Shown here: in pieces, positions 3,001-18,194 of the stretch | Layout: every line of letters starts with the position of its first letter | Numbering within the stretch: the stretch's first letter is position 1 | Source: Candidatus Pacearchaeota archaeon | GTDB taxonomy: Archaea; Nanobdellota; Nanobdellia; Pacearchaeales; GW2011-AR1 | DNA length: 31,436 nt | NCBI GenBank assembly: GCA_026395775.1 | Contig: JAPLYA010000141.1 | Location: 1-31,436, forward strand | Direction: 5' to 3' | Position numbers and translations under genes: made by a program | The notes under the pieces: model-generated | What the model saw: only the letters and a program-made list of their open reading frames with translations | Database searches by the model: none | What the model was told of the DNA's origin: nothing

Positions 3001-5466
3001 CCTACAAATGTAAGTTACAACATAAATGTTTCAAGTTTGAATTATTCAGCTTCAGACACTAATTTACAAGCTTGCTGGTATTCTGTTACTAGTGGTTCGA
3101 TAAATACAACTGTTGACTGTGGAAGCAATTTAACTGGATTAACATCAACAGAGGGAAGCAATGCTTGGTTGATTGGGGCAAATGATACAAGTGGGAATAG
3201 AAATTCTTCAGCAGTAACTTTCTGGAAAGATACTGTTTTGCCTGTTATTTATATCACTAATCCCAAAAATAAAAGTTATACTGATGCAAATTTATTTTTT
3301 AATTTAACCCTAAGCGAAAATACTTCTGCTTGTTTGTATCAATATGATACTTCAGCAAATGTTTCAATGCAGAGAGTAAATGATACCTCATTCGGAGCAA
3401 GAAAAACACTAATTACCGCCGCGCCCCACACAGTTATATTCACTTGTAATGATTCACTAAATAACTATAATTTAACTTCAATTTCTTTTACTAGAGATAC
3501 AACCCCCCCAATCATCATTATAAACTCTCCATTAAATACAACATACGAATCTGGAAGCAATATTTTAATAAACATAACATTCGGAGATGATGCTCAAGCT
3601 AAGTTAGTTGATTATAATGGGACCAATTATACTTATACAAATATATTTTATGCAAATTTGACTAATGGTACAACAAGGGTTATAGCTTTTGTAAATGATT
3701 CTGCTGGAAATCAAAATACTACTATAAGAAATTTTGTGGTTACAACCTCTGGGATCCAAGAAGGGGGCGGGGATATAGATGGGCCAAGCATAACACTCCA
3801 AGCCCCTGCTGATGGAGCTTCAACAACATCGGCTGCAATAGACTTTCAGTTTGATGTAACTGATGACAGTAATGTTGATAATTGCTCGCTTTTGTTCAGT
3901 GATGTTGCTGTTCAGACAACAAGTTCAATAAGCAAGACAGCAACAAATACAATTTCAAGAAGCTTGAGTGCAGGGAGTTATTCGTGGAAAATTAACTGCA
4001 CAGATGCGATTGGGAACATCAATGGAAGTTCATCAAGAAGCTTGACAATAAGTTCTTCAACTGGTTGTTCTAATTGTGGTGGGGGCGGGGGATGTTCAAG
4101 CGAATGCACTGTTGGAAATTTAAGATGTTCAGGAAGTGTTTTGCAATCTTGTGCTAAGGATTATGATAGTGATTCTTGCTATGAGTGGGGGGGAACTTTG
4201 CAAACTTGTTCTCAAGGTTGCAGCAATGGAGCTTGCATAAATCAAAATTGTACTGAAAGTTGGAAATGTTCTGATTATGGCAAGTGCGAAGTTGGATTAA
4301 TAAAAAGAAACTGCACAGATGATAATAATTGCGGAACTAAATTATACAAACCAGAAGAAACTCAGGTTTGTACAATAGGGCAATTGGTTTTAGAATACAG
4401 CCCTGAAATTTTGGATTTGATATTGCCTCAAGGAAAAGAGCAGAAGTTTTCAGCAATTGCAATTGAACAATCTGAAGCTGGTGAGATTCCAATTATAGCA
4501 AGATGGTATGCTGATAATATAAAGATTCAGGAAGAAGCCGGAATAAATTCTTCTCTTATAAGCTTGTTTAAAGTTTCTGGAAGCAGTAAGGTTAAACTTG
4601 AGGTATTTGATACTTACAATAATCAACAAGTGGTTTGGAATATTCAGTATGTTAATGCTAGTGGTTGCAGAGAAGATTGGGCTTGTGATTGGAGTGCCTG
4701 TGATGAAAATGGTTATTCTTATCCTAGAAGCTGCTATGATAAGAATAATTGCGGGACAAATGCAGATTATCCAAGAATGAAGACGTGTGGTAGGGAGGGG
4801 AGTGATATCTCTTGTAGGCCTACTTGGAAATGTTCTGATTGGGGAGAGTGCCAGGTTTCATATAAAATGAGTGATGTTGTTAAAAATAAAATTGAAACAG
4901 CAGGCGAGCAGAGTAGAACTTGCCAGGATGAAAGCAAATGTTACAGCTCTACAACTGAAAAGAGAAGTTGTAGTTTAACAAGAGCTGTAACTGTTAAAAA
5001 TGTTGAGTGGTGCAATGAAAAATATGTTGAAATCTGCGATGCAGAAACAAAGCAGATTGTTTCTAGGATAAGAGAAACAGGTTTTGACCAAGAATCACTG
5101 AAAAGTGTTGGGTTGATAACAGGAAAAGTAATAAAAGGAGTTGATATTGGTTTGATTGTTGCTAACTTTACAGGTTATTGTGATTACTGTTATGACGATG
5201 TTAAGAATTATGACGAGACTAGTGTAGACTGTGGTGGGCCAAATTGCCCTGTTTGTCAGGAGATTAATCTTGCGAGAGATTTCAGCAATTGGTACAGATG
5301 TTGGTTGTGGATTTTGTTTATAATATTATTGATTGCTTATTTGATTTATTTGTATAAAACAAGCAAGCATGCCAAAGAAAAATATCACAAGAAAGCTAGA
5401 GAATCTTTGATGAAGAAGATAAAGGGTTTTGAGGATAGAGAGATGAGAGAGTGGGGTTTGAAGTAA
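1..5466 (+). CDS. Giant membrane-anchored surface glycoprotein, 5'-truncated by the window (pectin-lyase-like beta-helix repeats, Ig-like domains, Cys-rich WxCSDW repeats, C-terminal TM)
   Basis: Frame is open from base 1 (PAPEAYETETDNGKVVEV...), so the TTG at 85 is not the true start. Repeated CFNITA(S/N)NITL(N)C and 'TI.NC.I' beta-helix units, dense N-x-S/T sequons, GGGGG linker, C-terminal CTESWKCSDY/CRPTWKCSDW repeats, DETSVDCGGPNC motif, hydrophobic WLWILFIILLIAYLIYLY followed by a basic tail. Confidence 0.9.
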   Translation, partial: PAPEAYETETDNGKVVEVSGPELDYTDILTYSEIPEEWSITSSKQIRVIWVEDNNPDLRKDWQFEAFDLNENGVIDYIEWNTPHLSNQTFEIIKIAKAVRLNSNRTFVEDVYDKVKAKDNIWQNIPDGEYLRVTFEKNLTNINDITIYARGSGSLGVYGQDSDYLITQFDNINSENWYKVYLTNLQGSQDVFDLKVLGNVDFDYVIDPYTDTGQLIQDVDDCGILNTANAVYTLTGNVKGNSTCFNITASNITLNCQGYMINFSANITGGGVGVFVDSENYTTIENCRIEGIGFSVLPLYAQAVVVHSSSNTSINNNTIIFGGSFSFVDSLFINPAYGDVYFPSLSELNNAGTFNFTNTSNLENANLTILWDSDVYSTLNVRWYLDLVVNSSSSRLENVNVSLRDRNQVLKFSSLTNSSGEIGRKILTEFVQTASSTKTYYSLYNLTAGKSGYTSYENHTINMTKNVNLNIVLSSVVDNSIVTDCKELNIENQIYNLQNDVSSSGVCFNITANNITMNCNNSQITYGTGGIESYAFYSVDASNITIKNCNIIEDVNSANYNYAIYFINTTSSSIYNNTITTMYDSSDAIHMTKTTIQANITGNNLEVDGNDVNAIYLAGNSGKKDSTNNTIYKNDIIATYYPGSGSAGIYFSEVSNTTVESNIINMSAPTYGAYIYNSVSNSFLYNVIYGMDYVQGFEIAGSNSRFNKFIGNNFSSFGISTNGIYISADLGSNLIENNTIVSSAEGIYLLNTKANSINRNNITTLGDTYASGIYIGSSGDSSFIGNIILTNGTDAPGILDRGDNKNITIQDCVITTLGNSSYAIRFNDFSSFATGIEVIDTILNASFEYMQELDINSIASGGIWNFTNVTLPDLTNFETNWEAGAIGNLNLKWWVEVNVSNSVTYTQIDGAGVNITNVFGSKQYSQATNATGRTPKSSLREYMRNETNTYYDSLYTLAAEKSGYSAYSNSSINTTTNMWINVLMTEGASDTTLPLVQLVYPTNVSYNINVSSLNYSASDTNLQACWYSVTSGSINTTVDCGSNLTGLTSTEGSNAWLIGANDTSGNRNSSAVTFWKDTVLPVIYITNPKNKSYTDANLFFNLTLSENTSACLYQYDTSANVSMQRVNDTSFGARKTLITAAPHTVIFTCNDSLNNYNLTSISFTRDTTPPIIIINSPLNTTYESGSNILINITFGDDAQAKLVDYNGTNYTYTNIFYANLTNGTTRVIAFVNDSAGNQNTTIRNFVVTTSGIQEGGGDIDGPSITLQAPADGASTTSAAIDFQFDVTDDSNVDNCSLLFSDVAVQTTSSISKTATNTISRSLSAGSYSWKINCTDAIGNINGSSSRSLTISSSTGCSNCGGGGGCSSECTVGNLRCSGSVLQSCAKDYDSDSCYEWGGTLQTCSQGCSNGACINQNCTESWKCSDYGKCEVGLIKRNCTDDNNCGTKLYKPEETQVCTIGQLVLEYSPEILDLILPQGKEQKFSAIAIEQSEAGEIPIIARWYADNIKIQEEAGINSSLISLFKVSGSSKVKLEVFDTYNNQQVVWNIQYVNASGCREDWACDWSACDENGYSYPRSCYDKNNCGTNADYPRMKTCGREGSDISCRPTWKCSDWGECQVSYKMSDVVKNKIETAGEQSRTCQDESKCYSSTTEKRSCSLTRAVTVKNVEWCNEKYVEICDAETKQIVSRIRETGFDQESLKSVGLITGKVIKGVDIGLIVANFTGYCDYCYDDVKNYDETSVDCGGPNCPVCQEINLARDFSNWYRCWLWILFIILLIAYLIYLYKTSKHAKEKYHKKARESLMKKIKGFEDREMREWGLK

Positions 5467-5670: not shown

Positions 5671-6939
5671 ATGTTATCAGAAGAACAAATAAAAGAAATA
5701 TTAGTAAAGCAAAGAGAAACAATATTAAATAAAAAATTTGGTATAGAAAGAACTATACTTAAAGAGATTGAATCCAAAATTAAACTTCCCCATGTTGTTG
5801 TTTTGACTGGTCTAAGAAGAAGCGGAAAATCCACGCTTTTAAGACAATTAATTAAAAACCACTACAAAGATGAAGACTTTTATTATATAAACTTTGAAGA
5901 TGAAAGATTGTTTAACTTTCCTGCAAGTGAATTTAACAAGCTTTATGAAGCATTAGTAAGCTTATATGGAAAAAAGAAAACATTCTTTTTAGATGAAATT
6001 CAAAATGTAACAAACTTTGAAACATTTGTTAGAAGATTATATGAAGAAGGTTTTAAATTTTTTATAACCGGTTCAAGTGCAACATTATTAAGTAAAGAAT
6101 TGGGGACAAAACTTACAGGAAGACATGTTGATATTATAGTAAGACCATTTTCTTTTTTAGAGTTTTTAGAACTCAAGGGATTTAAACTTGAGAAAGATAC
6201 TATTTATAAAACAGAATCAAAAGTTGAAATAAAAAAATATTTTGAAGAATATCTGATAACAGGAGGAATGCCAGAATATTTGATTTATAATGACCCCGAA
6301 CTTTTAACAAAAGTTTATGAAGATACTGTTTTAAAAGATATAGCTGTTAGGCATAAGGTAAATAATATAATTGTTCTAAGGAACTTATATTCAATTTTAA
6401 TATCTAATTTTGCTAATAAATTTAGTTTTAATTCATTAAAAAAAGTTACAGACATTAATAGTGTTAACACTATTAAGAAGTTTATACATTATCTTGAAGA
6501 AACTTATTTCGCTAAAACAATAAACAAATTTGATTATTCCCTAAAAAAACAGATAATAAACGATAAGAAATTTTATATAATAGACAATGGATTTGTTGGA
6601 GTTTTATCCAAGAAGCTTACAAAAGATAAAGGATGGCTACTCGAAAATTTAGTATTTAACTCTTTGAACAAAGATAATGATACTTTTTATTATTCTAATG
6701 CGAACGAATGTGATTTTCTATTGGTAAAAAACAAAACCGTAACTAAAGCAATTCAAGTTTGTTATGATTTAAATGGAGACAACAGAGAAAGAGAAATTTC
6801 TGGATTGAAAGAAGCAATGGATAAATTTAAGTTAAACGAAGGATTAATATTAACAAACAGCCAAGAAGAAGAGATTAAAATTGAAGGGAAAAAAATAAGA
6901 ATATTTTCCGTTTGGAAATGGCTTCTTGAAGAAAAATGA
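5671..6939 (+). CDS. AAA+ ATPase with DUF4143-type C-terminus (COG1373-like)
   Basis: Walker [19 protein letters not shown], Walker [49 protein letters not shown] 5671 preferred over TTG 5620 because of TATA spacing. Confidence 0.92.
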
Positions 6940-7619: not shown

Positions 7620-10055
7620 ATGGGAAAAAAAGCAATTTTTGCTGCAATTCTAGTCATAATTCTGGTGAGTTTTGTTTATGCTGCTAGTTTTAAATCTCTG
7701 CTTAAATCTTCTGATAATGGTTTATCACTTAAAGATATGAAGAAAAAAGGAATTCTAACTGGAGATTTTTATGATTCTATCCAAGATAGCCCTGATAGGG
7801 CGTTGACTATTATAGTCTCTTTTGATAAAAAACCAAAAGACTACAAAAGTATTATCAAAGACAATGGGGGGAAAATACTTTATGATTATGATATTATTGA
7901 AGGTTTGGCAATAGAGGTTTCTTCTAAAGATATAGAAAAACTTGGCAAAATAAAAGGGCTGAACAGAATTGAGCAAAATCAAATTCATCAGATTTTTCTT
8001 AATGATACTATCCCTTTAATTGGGGCAAATGAGAGTTGGGGTTTGGGGTATGATGGTGAAGGAATCAGGGTTTGTGTTCTTGATACAGGGATTAATTATA
8101 GTCATCCTGCCTTGGGAGGATGTACTCAAAATGATTTTTTAACTGGCAATTGTAAAAAGGTTATTGCTGGTTGGAATTTTGTTGATAATAATAATAATCC
8201 TTATGACGACAATAGTCACGGAACTCATGTTGCCGGGATAATTGCAAGCAATGACACAAGATTAAGGGGAGTTGCTTATAATGCTAGCTTATTGATTGCT
8301 AAAGTTTGTAATGCGCAAGGCGTTTGTGATGGCGCTAAAGAAATTGCTGGAATTCAATGGTGCGTCTCTCAAGGAGCAGAGATTATCAGTATGAGCCTTG
8401 GAAGTATAGAAAATTATACAAATTATTGTGATATGGGGGATTCTTTATATGACACGATTTCCGCTGCAGTAAATGCCGGAATTTTCTTTTCAGTTGCCTC
8501 TGGAAATAATTATAATACCACCGGCATTTCTTCTCCAGCTTGCAATTCAAAAGTTACTAGCGTTGGAGCAACAAAAAAGGACGATACAATTGCAGATTAT
8601 ACAAATAGAGGGAAAATTCTTGATTTGTTAGCCCCCGGTTCAGCAATTAATTCTACGATTAATGGAACTTTTGGATTAAAACAAGGAACATCAATGGCAG
8701 CTCCTCATGTTGCGGGATTAGCTGCTTTAATGTTGCAGAAAATACCCGAACTAACTCCTGCGCAACTTGAATATTTTATGAAACAAACAGGAAAACCAAT
8801 TCCTGATGCTGATTCTGGATTAACTTTCCCTCGAATAAATGCAAGTGCTGCAGTAAGAAATTCTTTTAAGATGGGTACATTGCAACCCTATACAATCACA
8901 GACTATACCGATGTTGGCCAAAATCAAACATCTTATTTTAAAGTTGGCGTTAAATGTGTTGGCGGACCTTGCGGAAATGTTTTTGGATTGTTAAATTGGA
9001 GTTATAATGGAACTAGTTTGATTTATGATACTGGAACCTCAAATTCTTGTTTTAATGAGGTTGATGTGGCATCCGAATTTGCAGTTAGATTTACCCCTCT
9101 AAGCTATCCTTTTACAATAAAAAAAGTTAGATTCTATACCTTTAATACTAACTCTTTCAACTTGCACATAAGAGAGGATAACTCTGGGGGGCCAGGTGCG
9201 GATTTAATTACCCCCCTAGAAGTAACTCCTACTTCAGGTGGATGGGTGGAGAAAAATTTGCCCCAACCAGTAACTATCAGTTCAGGAGATTTTTATGTAT
9301 CTTATGAAGAATTAATTCCTCATAATGGGATATACGTAGACGATTCAACTAATGATGAGCGTTCGTGGTATTCTGATGGTTCTAGTTGGTTTAGACTTTA
9401 TGAGGTTACTAGTAACTATAATCGTCTGATGATTCGAGTAAATGATTATTCCGAGCAAGGAATTGTGCCAGCAACTCCTGGGGCAAAACCTTTCTTTACA
9501 ACATCAAACCAACCACAAACTTGCGAGAATATGAATGATGGAAACACCTGTGATTTGGCTTGGAATGTGAATGCAACAGGGGATTATGGACTCTACAGTC
9601 TTTTTGCTTTATTTAATTCTAGTTATCCGCTTACTCCTGCCTTAAGCAATAAAACAATTATTACTATCGAAACGGAATCAATATCTATCACTCTCGGATT
9701 TAGTTCTATTTCTTTTGGGAATGTTAATCCTGGAGATACAAAAATGATAAGCAGTTATAATGTCACGATTGATGCAACTACAAATGTTAATGTTGATTTA
9801 TACCAAAAAGGCACAAATTTTAGTGTTAATAACCAGAATATAAGCATACAAAATATGAATTGGATTAATGACTCTACAAATCAAGGAGCAGCTTTTACAA
9901 TGAAAGAGGGATATGATAATAAGATTGAAAATATTGCTTCTGGTGGAAAATATCTAAATATGACTTATTGGTTATCTATCCCAGCAGGACAAACAGCGGC
10001 AGATTATGAATCACAAATCACAATCAAAGCTGTGAAGACTGGAACCAGCCCATAG
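7620..10055 (+). CDS. Secreted subtilisin-like S8 serine protease with C-terminal beta-sandwich domains
   Basis: Signal peptide, I9-like propeptide, catalytic triad motifs VLDTG, HGTHVAG, GTSMAAPHVAG; C-terminal ~120 aa resembles the 18382-18864 protein. Confidence 0.93.
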   Translation: MGKKAIFAAILVIILVSFVYAASFKSLLKSSDNGLSLKDMKKKGILTGDFYDSIQDSPDRALTIIVSFDKKPKDYKSIIKDNGGKILYDYDIIEGLAIEVSSKDIEKLGKIKGLNRIEQNQIHQIFLNDTIPLIGANESWGLGYDGEGIRVCVLDTGINYSHPALGGCTQNDFLTGNCKKVIAGWNFVDNNNNPYDDNSHGTHVAGIIASNDTRLRGVAYNASLLIAKVCNAQGVCDGAKEIAGIQWCVSQGAEIISMSLGSIENYTNYCDMGDSLYDTISAAVNAGIFFSVASGNNYNTTGISSPACNSKVTSVGATKKDDTIADYTNRGKILDLLAPGSAINSTINGTFGLKQGTSMAAPHVAGLAALMLQKIPELTPAQLEYFMKQTGKPIPDADSGLTFPRINASAAVRNSFKMGTLQPYTITDYTDVGQNQTSYFKVGVKCVGGPCGNVFGLLNWSYNGTSLIYDTGTSNSCFNEVDVASEFAVRFTPLSYPFTIKKVRFYTFNTNSFNLHIREDNSGGPGADLITPLEVTPTSGGWVEKNLPQPVTISSGDFYVSYEELIPHNGIYVDDSTNDERSWYSDGSSWFRLYEVTSNYNRLMIRVNDYSEQGIVPATPGAKPFFTTSNQPQTCENMNDGNTCDLAWNVNATGDYGLYSLFALFNSSYPLTPALSNKTIITIETESISITLGFSSISFGNVNPGDTKMISSYNVTIDATTNVNVDLYQKGTNFSVNNQNISIQNMNWINDSTNQGAAFTMKEGYDNKIENIASGGKYLNMTYWLSIPAGQTAADYESQITIKAVKTGTSP

Positions 10056-10200
10056 GTTCCTTAGTACATTAAGTGAGCTCAGTAATTAATTATTTCAAAC
10101 CTGAAAAAGAACCGGAATATAGTTTGTGGTGATTAATGAGATGTAACTAGAGAATAACAACAAACAGTTAGATTTTTAAACTTAGAGGAGATATATATTT

Positions 10201-11535
10201 ATGGGGCTCGAACAGACGTATGAGTATTTAGTAGGCGAAAGAATAATAGGGCTCGACCAAGAAGGAAGAGTAGCGCCCTTGCAAAAAGGGGAAAAAGAAA
10301 ACATTGAAAATCTTTCAAATAAAGAACGTGCACTTCGTTTTAACGGATTTGTGATAACTGATGAACGGGGGAACATAGTATTTGAAGATAGAAAAAGATA
10401 TGCACAGCACTTTTTCCCATTGTCTGTTATAGATTATGCAAAAGCAATGTATAATTTTGAGAGACATAAAAAACCAATTCCAATTCTTTCTGTAGACAGT
10501 CATGATGTATTGCAATGTGATTTTAAGTGCCAGGATTGTTTGTCCGCTCATGGAACAAATTTTCCTGTAAAACAATTTCCTAAAGACAATTTTAGGATGG
10601 ATTTAGAAACATATAAACAAATGTTAAAAGAAATTGCAGGCTACTCTGAAAAAAGAGGATTCAGAGGAGTAAGATTTGAACAATCCGGAGAAGGTAATCC
10701 TGATTATTATAAGCATAGACAAGAGATTTTAAGGTATGCCAAAGAATTGGGGATGCAAAGTGTATATGTTAGTGCTGGAAGTAAAATAAACGATCCTCTC
10801 ATGAACTCATTGGTAAAAAATGCTTCCTTTATTAGAATCAGTTTTCCAGGAATTTGGGAAGCATATAAACATTATTCCGGGCAGGGGGAGTTTACATTTA
10901 CAGATGCGATGGATGGGTTAGGCAGGATTGTTGAAGAAAGAGACAGGCAAGGAAGAAGGAGAGACTTAATGATTGGTGCAAGAGCAGCATTACGTGCTGA
11001 ACATAGTGATACTTATTTTAATTTTGCTAATAGACTAAAAGATCTGGGAATTGATTCCTTGTAGATTGTAAAAATACTCGTACCTGAAGGTAGGAAGCCC
11101 TCTGATTTCCCAGTAAGTTCTAGAGATATTCATGATTTGGAAGAAACTGAAACTTTAGACGATGCTAATTTTAATGTAAGTATTCCTCATGGATTAGACT
11201 CCATGGTTTACTCAAGAGAAATAGAAAATCGAGCCAAATTTCCAACACAGTGTTTTAGCGCAAGGTTTCAACCAGTTTTAGCTGGAAGAAGTTTATTTGT
11301 GTGTACTATTAGCGATATAATGTATTCTTACAATTTAAGACTTGGTACTTTTACAAATGAGGATGGAGAATTAGAAAGATTTTTATCTAAAGAGAATTTA
11401 GAAAGAGTTACTGAAGGAATACCTTTTCAATGTAAAAGTTGTTCAAATATATATGATAATGTGCTGTTATTTTCATTACAAAACCTATTTAGGGCAAATC
11501 CTCAAAAATTAAACTTTTATGAGATTATAAAATGA
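10201..11535 (+). pseudogene. Radical SAM enzyme with SPASM/twitch-like C-terminus, split by one in-frame TAG (11062-11064)
   Basis: CxxxCxxC = CDFKCQDC, QSGEGNP, FIRISF. Frame stays open after the TAG (DSL*IVKILVPEGRKP...) into ORF 11137-11535 with CFSARF...FVC...CKSC. Read-through length 444 aa. Confidence 0.8.
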
Positions 11536-12320
11536 AAGAATACAAATTTAATATAAGTATTACTGAAAAATGCAATTTGCGTTGTCCTCATTGTTACACA
11601 AGGAATAAACAGGGTTCTTTAACTATGGGGGAAGTGGATACTATAATTGGAAATTTAGAAGACGGATTAACAAGACTAAAAATAGAAGGGGGAGAACCTT
11701 ATTCTGAAAGAGAACTTTTTTACTACGCTATTCAACAATTTAAGCAGAGATTTCCGGAAGCTGAAATAAGAGCAAATTCAAATGGTGTGGCTTTTTATAA
11801 AGATAAGAGCACCATTATACAAGAAGCTGATAAACTCTATTCCTTGGGAGTTAGAAGATTAAGGATTTCTTTAGATAAATTTCATGAAGATGGTGGAGCT
11901 GATCTTGAGAAAGTAGTATCTATACAAAAAGTCCTGAAAGAAATAGAGCATCCATTAGATGTGAAATATATGTCTTTGACACAAGCATTGGCAATAGGAA
12001 CTGCAGAAGATTTACCGCAAGAACAGAAAGAAATAAGAAATTGTATGAATAATCCAGGATGTTTAGATAATCCTTATTTTTTTACAGACATAAAAGGGAA
12101 TTTATACACTTGTTGCTGGAGGCTAATCCCCCCTATAGGAAATTTACTTCAATCAAGACTTGGGGACTTATACAATAATATGAATGAGATGCAGAGGAAA
12201 CTACTTTCTGGAGAGGTGAGATTTTTAGCAACAGATCCTCATTTATTAAAAGTGGCTGAAGACTTAGGAGAGTGCATGCTTTGCAAGGAGGTTTTTAGAA
12301 GTTGCAGGGAAAATGAATAG
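11532..12320 (+). CDS. Radical SAM enzyme with short Cys-rich (twitch/SPASM-like) C-terminus
   Basis: CNLRCPHC, IEGGEP, NSNG, LRISLDKFH, then CMNNPGC...GNLYTCCW...CMLC; ATGA overlap with the upstream gene. Confidence 0.9.
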   Translation: MKEYKFNISITEKCNLRCPHCYTRNKQGSLTMGEVDTIIGNLEDGLTRLKIEGGEPYSERELFYYAIQQFKQRFPEAEIRANSNGVAFYKDKSTIIQEADKLYSLGVRRLRISLDKFHEDGGADLEKVVSIQKVLKEIEHPLDVKYMSLTQALAIGTAEDLPQEQKEIRNCMNNPGCLDNPYFFTDIKGNLYTCCWRLIPPIGNLLQSRLGDLYNNMNEMQRKLLSGEVRFLATDPHLLKVAEDLGECMLCKEVFRSCRENE

Positions 12321-13000
12321 AAAACTTTTTTTTAAAACTCCTGAAGATAAGCTTAGAGTCTTTCAAAAACCAAGATTAATAATGTTTTCAGAAGGATCTG
12401 AAGTAGAAAGCTGGGCTAATACCCAACCTCTTTACTTTTACCCATTTAGTTGGCAATGATTTAAGATTATTATCTGGTTTACCAAGGAATCAGATTTTGT
12501 CTTGCATTAAATTATATGTTGGAGATGGTTGTGACTATAGAGATATAGCATTGCAAGCTCGAGAGATGGGCTTTGATTTTCTTCATGTTGCCAAAAGGCT
12601 CATAAGTAACCGAGAAAACCCAAGAATATCTGAAGATGAGAGAGACAAAATATTAAAATTATACGAACTTGAATCTAATCAATTTAGAGTTATAACTCCT
12701 TCTTCATTAGAACAAAGGTTTGCAAAACGATTCATAATAACTCCTAGACTGGGAAATGTTTCTTCTTGTGATTTTTCAAAATATAGGTTAGTTTTAAATG
12801 GAGATAATCTTTATCCTTGTTATACTCAGCACATCTTAGCCCTAGATGGAGTTAGGAAAGAGGATACTGTAAATAATCCCGAGCATTGTTTAGATTGTGC
12901 TTGTATTTATGAAAATGATATGCTTAATGATATTGAAACCAAAATGAGAAGATATAAAAATCCTGGTTTTGCTCTAGAATATGTAGAAAATGGAAAATAA
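12313..13000 (+). pseudogene. Probable frameshifted radical-SAM/SPASM-like protein (no CxxxCxxC seen)
   Basis: ATG 12313 overlaps the upstream stop and reads about 48 codons to a stop near 12457. A second frame is open from about 12407 through ORF 12497-13000 (CDFSKYRLVLNGDNLYPCY...CLDCACIYEND), similar in Cys spacing to the C-terminus of 10201-11535. A frameshift between about 12407 and 12459 would join them. Confidence 0.6.
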
Positions 13001-13445
13001 TAAATTTGGACTTGGAGTAATAGTATGCATCTTTAATAGAGACTTCTCTCAGATATTTCTTCTAAAAAGAAACAAAGCGAAAAGAGATCTAAACAAAGCC
13101 GATTGGGGAAATGTTGGAGGAAGAGTGGAATGGGGGGAAAAATTAGTTGACGCTTGTGTAAGAGAAGTAAAAGAAGAAAGTGGAATTGATTTGGACCCAA
13201 AACAACTAAAACTTTTGAATATTAAAGAAATAACAGAAAATCCAATTGCCCCAACAGTTCATTTTTTACAGTTCATCTATGCTGCAAAGATAGATAAAAT
13301 CGAAGAAATACTTTTAAATGAAGAATCAGAAGAATATGGGTGGTTTAATTTAAAAGAGTTACCAGATAAAACTCTTGATCAAAAAGAAGACTTAATTAAA
13401 CTAAGCATTGCTGCGAAAAAGAAGTTCTCGGAAGATGAAAACTGA
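12990..13445 (+). CDS. Nudix hydrolase
   Basis: Nudix box GGRVEWGEKLVDACVREVKEESG. Confidence 0.92.
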   Translation: MENNKFGLGVIVCIFNRDFSQIFLLKRNKAKRDLNKADWGNVGGRVEWGEKLVDACVREVKEESGIDLDPKQLKLLNIKEITENPIAPTVHFLQFIYAAKIDKIEEILLNEESEEYGWFNLKELPDKTLDQKEDLIKLSIAAKKKFSEDEN

Positions 13446-14235
13446 AGATTTAAAAAAAACAGATAATCCCAATTTTGTTCATTCCCCCCTTAGATATCCC
13501 GGTAATCAGATTTATGCTCTTGATACGCTTTTATCACTTATTCCCGAACACAGATACTATGCTGAGCCCTTTTGTGGAGGCGCTTCGACATTTTTTGGAA
13601 AACCAAAAGCAGAAGGTAACTGGCTGAATGATGTAGATAGGGAACTGATAGAAACTTATATCGCTATAAGAGACCAACCAGAAAAACTTTTTGCTGCTTT
13701 AACTGGAGAAGAAATTTCTGAAAAAAGATATAATCATTTTAAAACAGGATTTACGCCAAGAAATGGTTTTGAGACAGCAGTGAGATGGTTTTATTTAAAC
13801 AGAACTTCTCGTTTAGAAACAATGAGCCGGTATTGGGAGTATGATAATAAAATAACCAGTCTACCGGTAGATTGGAGCAATATTATTTTGGGATGTTCCA
13901 AAAAATTGCAAGGTGTAAGGTTAACTTCTGGAGATTTTGGAGATGTCTTAGATAAAGTTCCCGAGGAGGCATTTTTATTTATAGCACCACCCTACTCTAT
14001 ACATCACTCTTCAGCCCAGAACAGATTGCATAAATACCCTTTTGAAAGAGAAGCTCACTTTAGGCTTGCCAATGCATTAAAATTATTAGATGGAAAAGTA
14101 AAATTTTTGGTTGTATATAATGAAAATGAGGAATTAAGAAGTATGTATTCTTGGGGCGAGCATATTGTAATATCTAACTTACCTAACAAATCTCCGCAAA
14201 AAGAAGAGATTGTGATTATGAATTATAAACTCTAA
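13435..14235 (+). CDS. D12/Dam-family adenine methyltransferase-fold protein with altered catalytic motif
   Basis: SPLRYPGNQ (family YPGGK), EPFCGGAS motif I, LNDVD, WFYLNRTS, but motif IV is FIAPPY instead of DPPY. ATG 13435 preferred over TTG 13408. Confidence 0.85.
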   Translation: MKTEDLKKTDNPNFVHSPLRYPGNQIYALDTLLSLIPEHRYYAEPFCGGASTFFGKPKAEGNWLNDVDRELIETYIAIRDQPEKLFAALTGEEISEKRYNHFKTGFTPRNGFETAVRWFYLNRTSRLETMSRYWEYDNKITSLPVDWSNIILGCSKKLQGVRLTSGDFGDVLDKVPEEAFLFIAPPYSIHHSSAQNRLHKYPFEREAHFRLANALKLLDGKVKFLVVYNENEELRSMYSWGEHIVISNLPNKSPQKEEIVIMNYKL

Positions 14236-14246
14236 AACAGAATAAA

Positions 14247-14801
14247 ATGGCAAAAAATAATTTATTTATGGTTGGTAGTGCTAAGGGCGTCGGGAAAACA
14301 AGATTAACATTAGATATATCTTCTGATTTAGGATTAGCAAGAATAGAAACTGGAAAAGTTGTATTTGATTATGTTTTTCAAGGATTACCTTTAGAGGGAT
14401 TAACAGATTATATAACTGGAGAAATTTTATCTCAGAACCGAAATCTTATTTTAGATACCCATTATGCTAGATACTCTGATAAAGAAGAGCCAAATAAACA
14501 ATTTAGAAGAGGGCTTGAGTCGGAAGATTTAGAGAGACTATTAGAAAAATTTAACATATTTCCTTGTCTTGTTGAAGTTCCACTATGCGAGCTTGAGCAA
14601 AGAAGAAAAAATGATCCAAAAAAGAGAGTAATCAATCCTTTTTATATTATGCAAGAAGTTGAATTTAATCGCAAGGGTTACGAACTTTATCTTCGAGAAG
14701 TTAATCAAAAACCATTTGTTTTAATTAATGATTTTTATACCAATGCTAGAAATAACTTATCTAAATGGATAACTGAAAATAATGGAGTTCAAAATGGATG
14801 A
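14247..14801 (+). CDS. P-loop nucleoside-monophosphate kinase, archaeal adenylate-kinase-like
   Basis: N-terminal P-loop GSAKGVGKT, LILDTHY (DTH as in archaeal AdkA), RRKND lid-like segment. Confidence 0.75.
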   Translation: MAKNNLFMVGSAKGVGKTRLTLDISSDLGLARIETGKVVFDYVFQGLPLEGLTDYITGEILSQNRNLILDTHYARYSDKEEPNKQFRRGLESEDLERLLEKFNIFPCLVEVPLCELEQRRKNDPKKRVINPFYIMQEVEFNRKGYELYLREVNQKPFVLINDFYTNARNNLSKWITENNGVQNG

Positions 14802-15246
14802 AAAAAGATTTGGTTTAGGTACTGTTCTTTATGTATTTAGTCAAGATTTATCTAGGGTTTTGCTTCTGAAATTAAATGAACATAAAAGAGTTAAGTTTGG
14901 CGCGGATTGGGGAAATGTTGGAGGAAAAATAAATCTTGGAGAAACATCCTTGGAGAATTGTATAAGGGAATCTGGAGAAGAGATTGGAGTAAGATTTGAA
15001 CCACGAGATTTAAGATTATTATATGTGAAAGAAATTCCCAATTTCTTTAATAAGGTTCATGCAGTACAATTTGTATATGGGGCTGCTTTGGATGAACAAA
15101 CACCCATAATTTTAGGTAAAGAGCTAGAATCTTATCGATGGTTTGATTTGTCTAAATTACCTGAGAGAACATTAGACACTCAAGAGGATTTTTATTATGC
15201 TCTAAGTCAGCTCAGAAATTCATTCAAGGCTTCAGCAAACTTGTAA
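14782..15246 (+). CDS. Nudix hydrolase, paralog of 12990-13445
   Basis: GGKINLGETSLENCIRESGEEIG; shares FGLG, ADWGNVGG and QF(I/V)Y(A/G)A and LP(D/E)(K/R)TLD with the first Nudix. Start could be 14794. Confidence 0.9.
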   Translation: MEFKMDEKRFGLGTVLYVFSQDLSRVLLLKLNEHKRVKFGADWGNVGGKINLGETSLENCIRESGEEIGVRFEPRDLRLLYVKEIPNFFNKVHAVQFVYGAALDEQTPIILGKELESYRWFDLSKLPERTLDTQEDFYYALSQLRNSFKASANL

Positions 15247-15315
15247 GCTTATTATACAATTCACTTATTAGTTAAGTGACCCCTGAACCTCAGCTTCGGT
15301 AAGGTTTTTATGGAA

Positions 15316-17040: not shown

Positions 17041-17850
17041 ATGATTCAAAAAAGAGGGGTGTTTAGTTTGAATTGCTGGAAAATATTAGGTATCCCCATA
17101 TTGTTTATTCTATTGATTAATACTGTTTATGCTGAAAAGATTATTAATACCAAATTAAGTATCGCAAGACTTAATCCCGAAATTCTAAATGATTATGTTC
17201 AAAATTATCCTGTTGGAAAACTTGTTTTTAATGATTTTTCAGTTAATTTTCTTGAAATAAAAATGGAAGATGGTTTCTATGAGCTAAATTCATCTAGCAA
17301 GGAATTATTTGAAGCAAGACTAATGAGCTCTAGAAAAAAACAACTTTATTCTATCTCTTTTTATCCCGACTTCACGATTTTGTCTGATCCCCCAATTGAG
17401 TTAAATGAAACTGTTGTAGAACTTAATTTCCCCTACTCCTTGGATGCAAAATATATAGAAATTTATTATAAAAATATTAAAAAATTAAGTGTCGATATAA
17501 GCAAGCAATTATGTAACAAAAATAAAAAATGTGATGGCAATGAGAATTATCTTTCTTGTCCTGGTGAATGCAAATTTTATTCTAATGATAGTTTATGTCT
17601 TAATGTGAAAGATTGGTTTAATCTCTCTTTAGAATACTGGGGAGATAATTATTGCGACAGAGATTGCTATAATGATGATGACTGCTTTAAGGCGAACTGC
17701 AATGATGGCAAGAAAAATGGAAATGAGACAGGGATTGATTGTGGCAAGGTTTGCTTTAACACTTGCAAATATCCGAATAAGATAATCACTGGAATGTCTG
17801 TTTATGAAGAAAGAGAGGGGTTTTGGGCCAAATTTCGGAATTTTTTTTAA
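17041..17850 (+). CDS. Secreted protein with Cys-rich C-terminal region
   Basis: Signal peptide ending VYA; ILSDPP domain; CNKNKKCDGNENYLSCPGEC, DNYCDRDC, NGNETGIDCG motifs. Confidence 0.8.
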   Translation: MIQKRGVFSLNCWKILGIPILFILLINTVYAEKIINTKLSIARLNPEILNDYVQNYPVGKLVFNDFSVNFLEIKMEDGFYELNSSSKELFEARLMSSRKKQLYSISFYPDFTILSDPPIELNETVVELNFPYSLDAKYIEIYYKNIKKLSVDISKQLCNKNKKCDGNENYLSCPGECKFYSNDSLCLNVKDWFNLSLEYWGDNYCDRDCYNDDDCFKANCNDGKKNGNETGIDCGKVCFNTCKYPNKIITGMSVYEEREGFWAKFRNFF

Positions 17851-17951
17851 TAAGTTTGTTTAGAAGTTTAGATATAAACAACCGATAGATTTATTTATAA
17901 GAATCTTTTATTAAAACAGTGAATCGTAAAGCCCGGGGATGAAGGATAAAA

Positions 17952-18194
17952 ATGATAATACCGCTTGACTTGAATGCATATAACGGAGCATTGAGATTAG
18001 CCCAGATTACAGGTTCGCGTATTGAGCATGGGTTCGAGACTCTTGAGAATTTACAAAAGCAGATAAATAAAGATAGAGAAGAAATTATTAAGCTTGCTGA
18101 ACAAGATCATAATCAGGTTGATAGATATTGGTGCATATACAGACAAGAATCAGCAAGATTTGAAAGATTGGTAAGAGAAAAGTTAAGGGTTTAA
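17952..18194 (+). CDS. Hypothetical protein (helical, 80 aa)
   Basis: ORF with aaaaATG context and charged composition; no family recognised. Confidence 0.55.
   Translation: MIIPLDLNAYNGALRLAQITGSRIEHGFETLENLQKQINKDREEIIKLAEQDHNQVDRYWCIYRQESARFERLVREKLRV

Follow-up and report, generated by a model that had tools for sequence, protein, structure and literature searches.

The 31,436-nt contig JAPLYA010000141.1 of a Candidatus Pacearchaeota archaeon (the entire 31.4-kb contig is referred to here as the window; it belongs to a genome bin of 0.94 Mb that is 80% complete and originates from freshwater sediment) contains a cassette of seven plus-strand genes at positions 10201-15246. These encode the radical S-adenosylmethionine (SAM) enzymes R1 and rSAM2, a third protein of radical-SAM fold (X), two Nudix hydrolases (Nudix-a and Nudix-b), a Dam-fold protein (D12) and a P-loop kinase (Y). 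Comparative analysis shows that the genes did not come together by chance but form a discrete, co-inherited, selected and mobile cassette. As an association of radical-SAM enzymes, a kinase and Nudix hydrolases it belongs to a known kind, of which it is an undescribed variant; a full-text literature search and the model libraries returned no description of the gene set, in agreement with the preliminary description of this DNA, made from the sequence alone, which had not recognized it as a known system. The reading preferred here, at a probability of about 0.5, is that the cassette is a rare and mobile operon which would tailor a nucleotide or a nucleotide-linked sugar, that it is probably off in this strain, and that the apparent break in X is most likely artefactual.

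Organization of the Operon

All long reading frames between 10201 and 15246 are co-oriented, and neighboring genes overlap by 4, 8, 11, 11, and 20 nt, with a single gap of 11 nt, which bears out the tight seven-gene packing reported in the preliminary description. The one TATA element reported upstream is likewise present and conserved in three related loci: AGATTTTTAAAC is kept in the window and in the loci L018 and L009, and the variant TTTATAAA is found in L004. The features of the operon, all on the plus strand, are as follows.

10170-10181, plus strand: TATA-like promoter element AGATTTTTAAAC, approximately 25 nt 5' of the first ATG.
10201-11535, plus strand: R1, a 444-codon radical-SAM gene with the triad CDFKCQDC, the motif FEQSGEGNPD and four conserved C-terminal cysteines.
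11532-12320, plus strand: rSAM2, a radical-SAM enzyme of 262 amino acids (aa) with the triad CNLRCPHC and a GGE motif (Pfam Radical_SAM, 40.4 bits).
12313-12453, plus strand: N-terminal 47 codons of X (MNRKLFFKTPEDK...QPLYFYPFSW), overlapping the end of rSAM2 by 8 nt.
12454, plus strand: junction in X at which 247 nt (about 82 codons plus 1 nt) are absent relative to L018 positions 6434-6680.
12455-13000, plus strand: C-terminal part of X, residues 133-313 approximately, with the motif C...PCY...CLDCACIYEND.
12990-13445, plus strand: Nudix-a, a Nudix hydrolase of 151 aa with an intact Nudix box, GGRVEWGEKLVDACVREVKEESGI (Pfam, 69.7 bits).
13435-14235, plus strand: D12 (Dam-fold) protein (Pfam PF02086, 70.1 bits).
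14247-14801, plus strand: Y, a P-loop kinase of 184 aa (GSAKGVGKT), a relative of archaeal-type adenylate kinases.
14782-15246, plus strand: Nudix-b, a second Nudix hydrolase of 154 aa with the box GGKINLGETSLENCIRESGEEIGV (Pfam, 49.5 bits).

Distribution and Conservation of the Cassette

Investigation of 50 loci, many of which are cut by contig ends so that the counts are lower bounds, revealed the five-part core of R1, rSAM2, X, a Nudix hydrolase and a kinase in 11 of them, six archaeal (the DPANN loci L004, L009, L018, L020, L021, and L024) and five bacterial (L027, L028, L032, L033, and L038, from gut Bacilli). Co-occurrence of the gene set elsewhere, which the preliminary description had left to a neighborhood search, is thereby documented. 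Taken singly, X was detected in 29 loci, rSAM2 and a P-loop kinase in 26 each, and a Nudix hydrolase in 15.

The order R1-rSAM2-X-Nudix-Y is found in the DPANN loci L004, L007/L020, L021, and L024, while L018, the R1 of which is 81-88% identical to that of the window, has the exact seven-gene order of the window with all genes intact, and L009 has a class-I methyltransferase and another Nudix hydrolase as extras. A second archaeal variant (L013, L022, and L023) consists of an AAA_17 kinase, R1, X, Nudix, D12, a weakly radical-SAM-like protein of 600-633 aa and a family 2 glycosyltransferase (GT2). Bins of gut Bacilli, Mollicutes and Erysipelotrichaceae have R1, rSAM2, and X together with a Nudix hydrolase, a guanylate-kinase-like protein, a metallophosphoesterase, two DUF402-like proteins, GT2 and DUF4422; GT2 lies directly downstream in 14 of the 50 loci, all bacterial, and DUF4422 is present in five. 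The D12 gene is an archaeal add-on to the core: it was detected in four of the 50 loci, all archaeal, the window being the fifth copy, lies within the operon in these five copies over a range of R1 identities of 42-90%, and is absent from most archaeal and all bacterial copies.

The ratio of non-synonymous to synonymous substitution rates (dN/dS) is 0.06-0.29 for every gene of the cassette, thus all genes are under purifying selection. Similarity of the window to L018 or L009 is limited to 10141-15277, with unrelated flanks on either side, and a second intact copy of the cassette was not found in the organism's own genome.

The family is very rare: a survey of 185,579 species, each represented by a single genome, yielded 48 loci, and a search of 1.84 billion representatives (50% identity clusters) with the R1 profile returned 14 sequences at E ≤ 1e-30 and 77 at E ≤ 1e-10, with 614 R1-related representatives in all. 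A sample of 400 other genomes of the phylum contained no R1 (E ≤ 1e-20); the nearest relatives of the cluster are labeled Nanoarchaeota or Woesearchaeota. Relatives were detected neither in 2.9 million IMG/VR viral contigs nor in 50,697 phage records, and a phage origin was rejected for lack of any relative among the viral contigs or phage records searched.

Two further arrangements were observed among the bacterial relatives. The clostridial loci L037, L040, and L041 encode X as a fusion protein of 624-642 aa that ends in an aldo-keto reductase domain; next in order come genes for a KTI12-like P-loop protein, a DUF402 protein and an RNase_T-like exonuclease. The loci L044-L063 (about 20 Clostridia and one alphaproteobacterial bin) have a shorter R1 (416-436 aa), lack X and rSAM2, and adjoin a conserved block on the opposite strand encoding an alpha/beta hydrolase, WG-repeat proteins, a protein of 814-854 aa and a Phage_30_3-like protein; in this setting the R1 enzyme family is put to another use.

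The Radical-SAM Fold Proteins

The motifs CDFKCQDC and CNLRCPHC, from which two radical-SAM enzymes had been called, are present in R1 and rSAM2. In R1, the triad C106/C110/C113 (CX3CX2C) and the GGE-type motif SGEGNPD were both found, and the domain search gave a weak radical-SAM match. In the AlphaFold2 model of R1 (predicted local distance difference test, pLDDT, 90.9), a radical-SAM barrel is accompanied by an N-terminal domain, about 95 residues long, and by a C-terminal domain in which four cysteines are invariant. Its closest solved structure is DesII (Z 23.4, model residues 14-441; Foldseek E 3e-13, template modeling (TM) score about 0.55, identity 12-14%), which is also the top match among Swiss-Prot models and AFDB clusters. 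Other structural matches include SkfB (Z 22.7), SuiB (21.7), BlsE (21.4), MoaA (19.3), viperins (about 18-19) and anSME, with TYW1 as a distant match (Z 12.6-12.9); the substrates of the best solved matches are nucleotide-linked, nucleosides or peptides.

An alignment of 21 orthologs of rSAM2 shows the triad C14/C18/C21, the GGE motif and four invariant auxiliary cysteines (C171, C194, C248, and C251). The rSAM2 profile matches YydG/EpeE (E 2e-14), GDGT-MAS, MoaA, SkfB, AbmM (E 7e-7) and viperins in the PDB, in each case over the N-terminal half only. Neither R1 nor rSAM2 falls into a known cofactor, RiPP or glycan family, a placement that the preliminary description had named among the outcomes that would refute its reading.

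The third member, X, is a conserved protein of 307-340 aa and a paralog of the C-terminal half of R1. An AlphaFold2 model of intact X (pLDDT 90.7) has a radical-SAM/SPASM fold (TM-score 0.66-0.71 to Atlas clusters) and weakly matches the solved structures of SkfB, HemN, SuiB, and viperin. The CX3CX2C triad is missing from X, an invariant QPLYFYP occupying that site, and X retains the C-terminal cysteine set C...PCY...CxDCACIYEND. The Pfam SPASM model (PF13186) matched none of R1, rSAM2, and X; single-sequence searches of the PDB with R1, X or Y returned nothing useful, and prediction of an R1-X complex gave a score of 0.00, which gives no answer and is not evidence either way.

The Nudix Hydrolases, Kinase and D12 Protein

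The two Nudix hydrolases named in the preliminary description are above the Pfam cut-off of 21.1 bits, and both boxes fit GX5EX7REUXEEXGU. Nudix-a is 93% identical to the second Nudix hydrolase of L009 and to the first of L018, while Nudix-b is 40% identical to Nudix-a and has an ortholog of 85% identity at the same position in L018. No model of a Nudix substrate subfamily reached its cut-off, the best being NudB at 44 versus 103 bits.

The gene called adenylate-kinase-like encodes a relative of archaeal-type adenylate kinases. The profile of Y, built from 10 orthologs, matches solved archaeal adenylate kinases over the full length (positions 4-179), with 6pjw at E 3.2e-9, 6ln3 and 1ki9 within 2e-8, and archaeal-type adenylate kinases overall at E 3e-9 to 1e-6. 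No Pfam or NCBIfam model matched Y at its cut-off (Pfam ADK, 13.7 versus 26.8 bits for the L007 ortholog); Atlas groups Y with AAA_17 clusters.

The designation of the fifth gene as Dam-fold holds for the D12 domain (cut-off for PF02086, 22 bits); the score to the Dam subfamily model TIGR00571 (87.3) lies below the cut-off of 114.85, and the catalytic motif IV, defined as [SDN]PP[FYW] (PMC10853773), is not found in the window copy. The SAM-binding motif I (EPFCGGAS) is invariant in the five orthologs, and YPGNQ stands in place of YPGSK. For motif IV, the window and L009 share IAPPY and L018 has ITPPY, whereas IDPPY is confined to the deeper copies of L013 and L022. With a dN/dS of 0.12-0.19, the protein is under selection although the catalytic Asp has been lost in this lineage, so binding is more likely than methylation; DndH is a precedent for a retained but catalytically eroded Dam module (PMC10853773).

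State of R1 and X in This Strain

The preliminary description was right in calling the first gene a radical-SAM gene but overlooked that its 444-codon frame is interrupted by a single in-frame TAG at 11062-11064 (Gln288 to stop). Full-length R1 homologs are all 438-475 aa long, and Gln288 is invariant in an alignment of 35 of them, thus one CAG-to-TAG change accounts for the stop. Independently assembled contigs of two sequencing runs, from two sediment samples, cover 10000-11122 and 10000-11819 without a differing letter; the stop is therefore present in the dominant population. The R1 codons on either side of the TAG have a dN/dS of 0.11-0.15 relative to homologs, hence the nonsense mutation is recent.

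TAG is an ordinary stop codon in this genome, where it terminates 76 of 425 long open reading frames as well as the protease gene upstream of the cassette, and a tRNA-CUA was not found among the 23 tRNAs detected in the 80% complete genome. A recoded TAG (pyrrolysine or suppression) was rejected on these grounds, though not absolutely, given the completeness of the genome. Two of the 23 tRNA-like calls made by aragorn have four-base anticodon readings (cgga and ttta); these may be intron-containing or odd-loop tRNAs.

Truncation after residue 287 removes the last barrel strand (the region of the invariant Q288 and K291) and the entire auxiliary-cluster domain of R1, and the nonsense codon thus most likely deprives the cassette of its function in the dominant strain. 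While the pathway is probably off here, the remaining six genes still appear intact, the gap in X being a likely assembly artefact.

The segment at 12497-13000, described previously as a SPASM-like relic, encodes the C-terminal 60% of X and is part of a third core protein of radical-SAM fold, an assembly gap having been misread as gene decay. The N-terminal 47 codons share 88% identity with the intact L009 version of X over its residues 1-49. None of the run contigs bridges the junction at 12454: one continues from left to right past it into ...SWLDYLGKEGIR, another enters from ...FVRVRINNPLNDLR, and both ends keep the reading frame and agree with the portion of X that the window lacks. The 247-nt gap therefore stems from misassembly or reflects a minor variant at most, so that the organism itself probably has an intact X. 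In run X2, 12889-13418 (the Nudix-a region) is also covered, at similar depth, by further contigs that differ from the window by about 6%, thus a closely related strain or species with the same cassette coexists in one sediment sample; this relative may have caused the assembly break at 12454.

Proposed Function

The substrate is proposed to be a nucleotide or nucleotide sugar because the constant partners of the radical-SAM proteins are nucleotide enzymes, because the variable bacterial partners include further phosphohydrolases (MazG-like, DUF402, metallophosphoesterase, and HD) and kinases, and because many of the nearest solved enzymes (DesII, BlsE, MoaA, viperin, and AbmM) act on such compounds. 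In the pathway envisaged, kinase Y would phosphorylate a nucleoside mono- or diphosphate to the level required of the substrate, R1 (possibly aided by X) and rSAM2 would then attack the ribose or sugar portion of the nucleotide or nucleotide-linked sugar by SAM-radical chemistry, and the Nudix enzymes would either cleave the pyrophosphate of the product or keep the normal pool free of it. As an optional archaeal addition, the Dam-fold protein would be more likely to bind than to methylate. The pathway for a non-canonical nucleotide put forward in the preliminary description is thus retained as the best-supported reading with respect to the co-occurrence of the genes and the position of both enzymes outside known unrelated families, but its defense component has no matching defense-system model.

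Several points weigh against a nucleotide-tailoring role. The proposed substrate class derives solely from fold neighbors and gene neighbors; the R1 profile matched no PDB sequence at E ≤ 0.01, and its fold scores to the peptide maturases SkfB, SuiB, and anSME nearly equal the score to DesII. The GT2, DUF4422, aldo-keto reductase fusion and methyltransferases of the bacterial versions would fit a glycan or small-molecule pathway as well. Concerning the state of the strain, the sequencing runs were inspected as assembled contigs, and as these drop rare variants, an intact R1 allele could coexist.

Among known systems, the nucleoside antibiotic pathways share with the cassette radical-SAM chemistry on a nucleoside or nucleotide. 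The radical-SAM and nucleotide phosphohydrolase pair OxsB/OxsA of oxetanocin is one such combination, and the blasticidin enzyme BlsE (PDB 7vob, Z 21.4) and the albomycin enzyme AbmM (PDB 8wm2, Z 15.5) are among the matches of the radical-SAM proteins of the cassette. In the tubercidin pathway, the radical-SAM step (TubB) is followed by a tailoring Nudix hydrolase, TubG, as an instance of subsequent Nudix/HD trimming (PMC6112128). However, the cassette enzymes are not orthologous to those of any of these pathways, the cassette occurs in DPANN genomes of less than 1 Mb and in gut Bacilli and not in actinomycete clusters, and the window has no transporter or resistance gene that could be seen.

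A more specific version of the nucleotide-tailoring reading is quite unlikely. In it, two active radical-SAM proteins and their cluster-less partner, supplied by a dedicated kinase and with the Nudix enzymes in control, would make a novel nucleotide with a rearranged or deoxygenated sugar, which DPANN archaea and reduced gut Bacilli would employ against viruses or a host or to mark DNA or RNA, with the Dam-fold protein as an adenine-binding targeting subunit. A role as a substitute ribonucleotide reductase was rejected, as the genome has its own anaerobic ribonucleotide reductase, NrdD, adjoined by a radical-SAM gene taken as its activase.

Alternative Explanations

An antiviral viperin-like system, in which a kinase-fed nucleoside triphosphate would be converted to a chain-terminating or toxic analog and the Nudix enzymes would shield the host pool, is unlikely, though it has a parallel in genetic organization: prokaryotic viperins (pVips), like viperin with CMPK2, pair a radical-SAM enzyme genetically with a nucleotide kinase, and they resemble the cassette also in fold and in their patchy, accessory distribution. 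The cassette is itself rare, patchy and mobile, with unrelated flanks and a knockout in this strain; toxin-antitoxin pairs flank the L009 copy, and both Nudix hydrolases match the defense candidate PDC-S07. Matches of R1 and rSAM2 to viperin models are weak, however, both for PADLOC (34.6 and 38.2 bits) and for NCBIfam viperin_w_prok (NF038283; 32 and 28.7 bits, respectively, against a cut-off of 180), and are confined to the generic N-terminal half (positions 2-126 of 281 for R1 in the NCBIfam model; positions 5-115 and 2-119 of 257 in the PADLOC models). R1 and rSAM2 carry an additional four-cysteine site that viperins lack, and the cassette has three proteins of radical-SAM fold in place of one, plus one or two Nudix genes. 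Membership of R1 or rSAM2 in the viperin family was rejected by score and coverage. No defense-system model fits the cassette, PADLOC returning a generic type II or orphan methyltransferase, PDC-S07 and the sub-threshold pVip matches, and the flanks encode mostly housekeeping functions (RtcB, archease, pilus genes, and a DEAD helicase); the viral contigs and phage records, in which nothing was found, are hardly informative on a host defense.

Tailoring of a nucleotide sugar that ends up in a surface glycan or in a glycosylated small molecule, with R1 acting like DesII on a nucleoside diphosphate sugar and a glycosyltransferase transferring the product, is likewise improbable. DesII is the dTDP-4-amino-4,6-dideoxy-D-glucose ammonia-lyase (PDB 8hzv/8hzy), which acts on a TDP-sugar. 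Its structural similarity to R1 extends over nearly the whole chain, its substrate is nucleotide-linked, and it ranks first in all three structure collections, but the TM-score is only about 0.55, a sequence-level match is missing, and R1 has the four conserved C-terminal cysteines as a point of difference. Regarding gene context, this explanation would account for the GT2 and DUF4422 genes of the bacterial loci and the GT2 of the archaeal L022, for the fusion of X with an aldo-keto reductase, and for the class-I methyltransferases of L009 and L030. In contrast, glycosyltransferases are missing from the window and from its closest relatives; genes for desosamine-type sugars are not nearby, nor does the window contain sugar-pathway genes; and all of the loci lack the nucleotidyltransferases, dehydratases, epimerases, flippases and polymerases that are typical of glycan loci, whereas they are rich in nucleoside monophosphate kinases and nucleotide phosphohydrolases (the Nudix, MazG-like, DUF402, metallophosphoesterase, and HD proteins).

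Modification of nucleic acid, yielding a hypermodified base or sugar in DNA or tRNA with the Dam-fold protein flipping out or marking adenine, is very unlikely. It would give a role to the D12 gene inside the operon, with the canonical DPPY in the deep L013 and L022 copies, and to the KTI12-like and exonuclease-like neighbors in L040, and one source labels some R1 homologs as wyosine-synthase-like; against this stand the absence of D12 from most copies, the Ala or Thr at its catalytic residue in this lineage, the distance of the TYW1 match, and the occurrence of R1 in none of the 400 other genomes of the phylum, which fits a translation-linked role poorly. Regarding known Dam/D12 N6-adenine methyltransferases and the inactive DAM domain of DndH (PMC10853773), the D12 fold and SAM motif I are kept in the cassette protein, but unlike DndH it is changed only at the first residue of motif IV, motif I being intact, and it has no nuclease partner.

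Maturation of a ribosomally synthesized and post-translationally modified peptide by R1, rSAM2, and X, with the nucleotide enzymes as unrelated neighbors, is highly improbable despite the peptide maturases among the top matches (SkfB, SuiB, anSME, CteB, and YydG), the auxiliary cysteine sites of all three proteins and the cluster-less SPASM partners known in peptide systems (e.g., GeoRSP), because no small open reading frame is conserved (the conserved block spans from 60 nt before R1 to the last Nudix stop), Pfam SPASM is not matched, and the Nudix and kinase genes match the radical-SAM genes both in conservation and in tightness of overlap, in archaea as well as in bacteria. The cluster-less partners (TIGR04347 pseudo-SAM/SPASM and GeoRSP) are nonetheless the nearest analogs of X, which shares with them the fold, the missing CX3CX2C, the C-terminal cysteine ligands and the constant position of its gene beside a true radical-SAM paralog; X differs in having no sequence match to them (TIGR04347 is weakly matched by rSAM2 and not by X) and in its context of nucleotide enzymes and not of peptides.

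Implications of the Nucleotide-Tailoring Reading

Cassettes that combine radical-SAM enzymes, kinases and Nudix hydrolases are a source of new antiviral nucleotides and nucleoside drugs, as exemplified by the products of viperins and the nucleoside antibiotics. The set of three radical-SAM fold members is unusual, and the family is very small and common to ultra-small archaea and gut bacteria that cannot be grown. If the cassette tailors a nucleotide or nucleotide-linked sugar as proposed, its product would represent unfamiliar chemistry, reachable only by expressing the genes, for which L018, L004, and L032 provide intact templates. For annotation, the contig misrepresents X through what is probably a 247-nt assembly gap, while the nonsense allele of R1 is real and would make the strain a natural knockout.

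Flanking Genes

The L009 cassette is flanked by a MNT/HepT-like pair and a PemK/MazE pair (3347-4140 and 17614-18149), which suggests a variable genomic island; such pairs are not next to the cassette copy of the window. A gene for an S8 protease adjoins the cassette both in the window (7620-10055, upstream, 811 aa) and in L009 (16160-17359, downstream, 399 aa). Similarity between the two proteases was not detectable by tblastx, and the occurrence of an S8 protease beside the cassette in both loci is therefore probably a coincidence.

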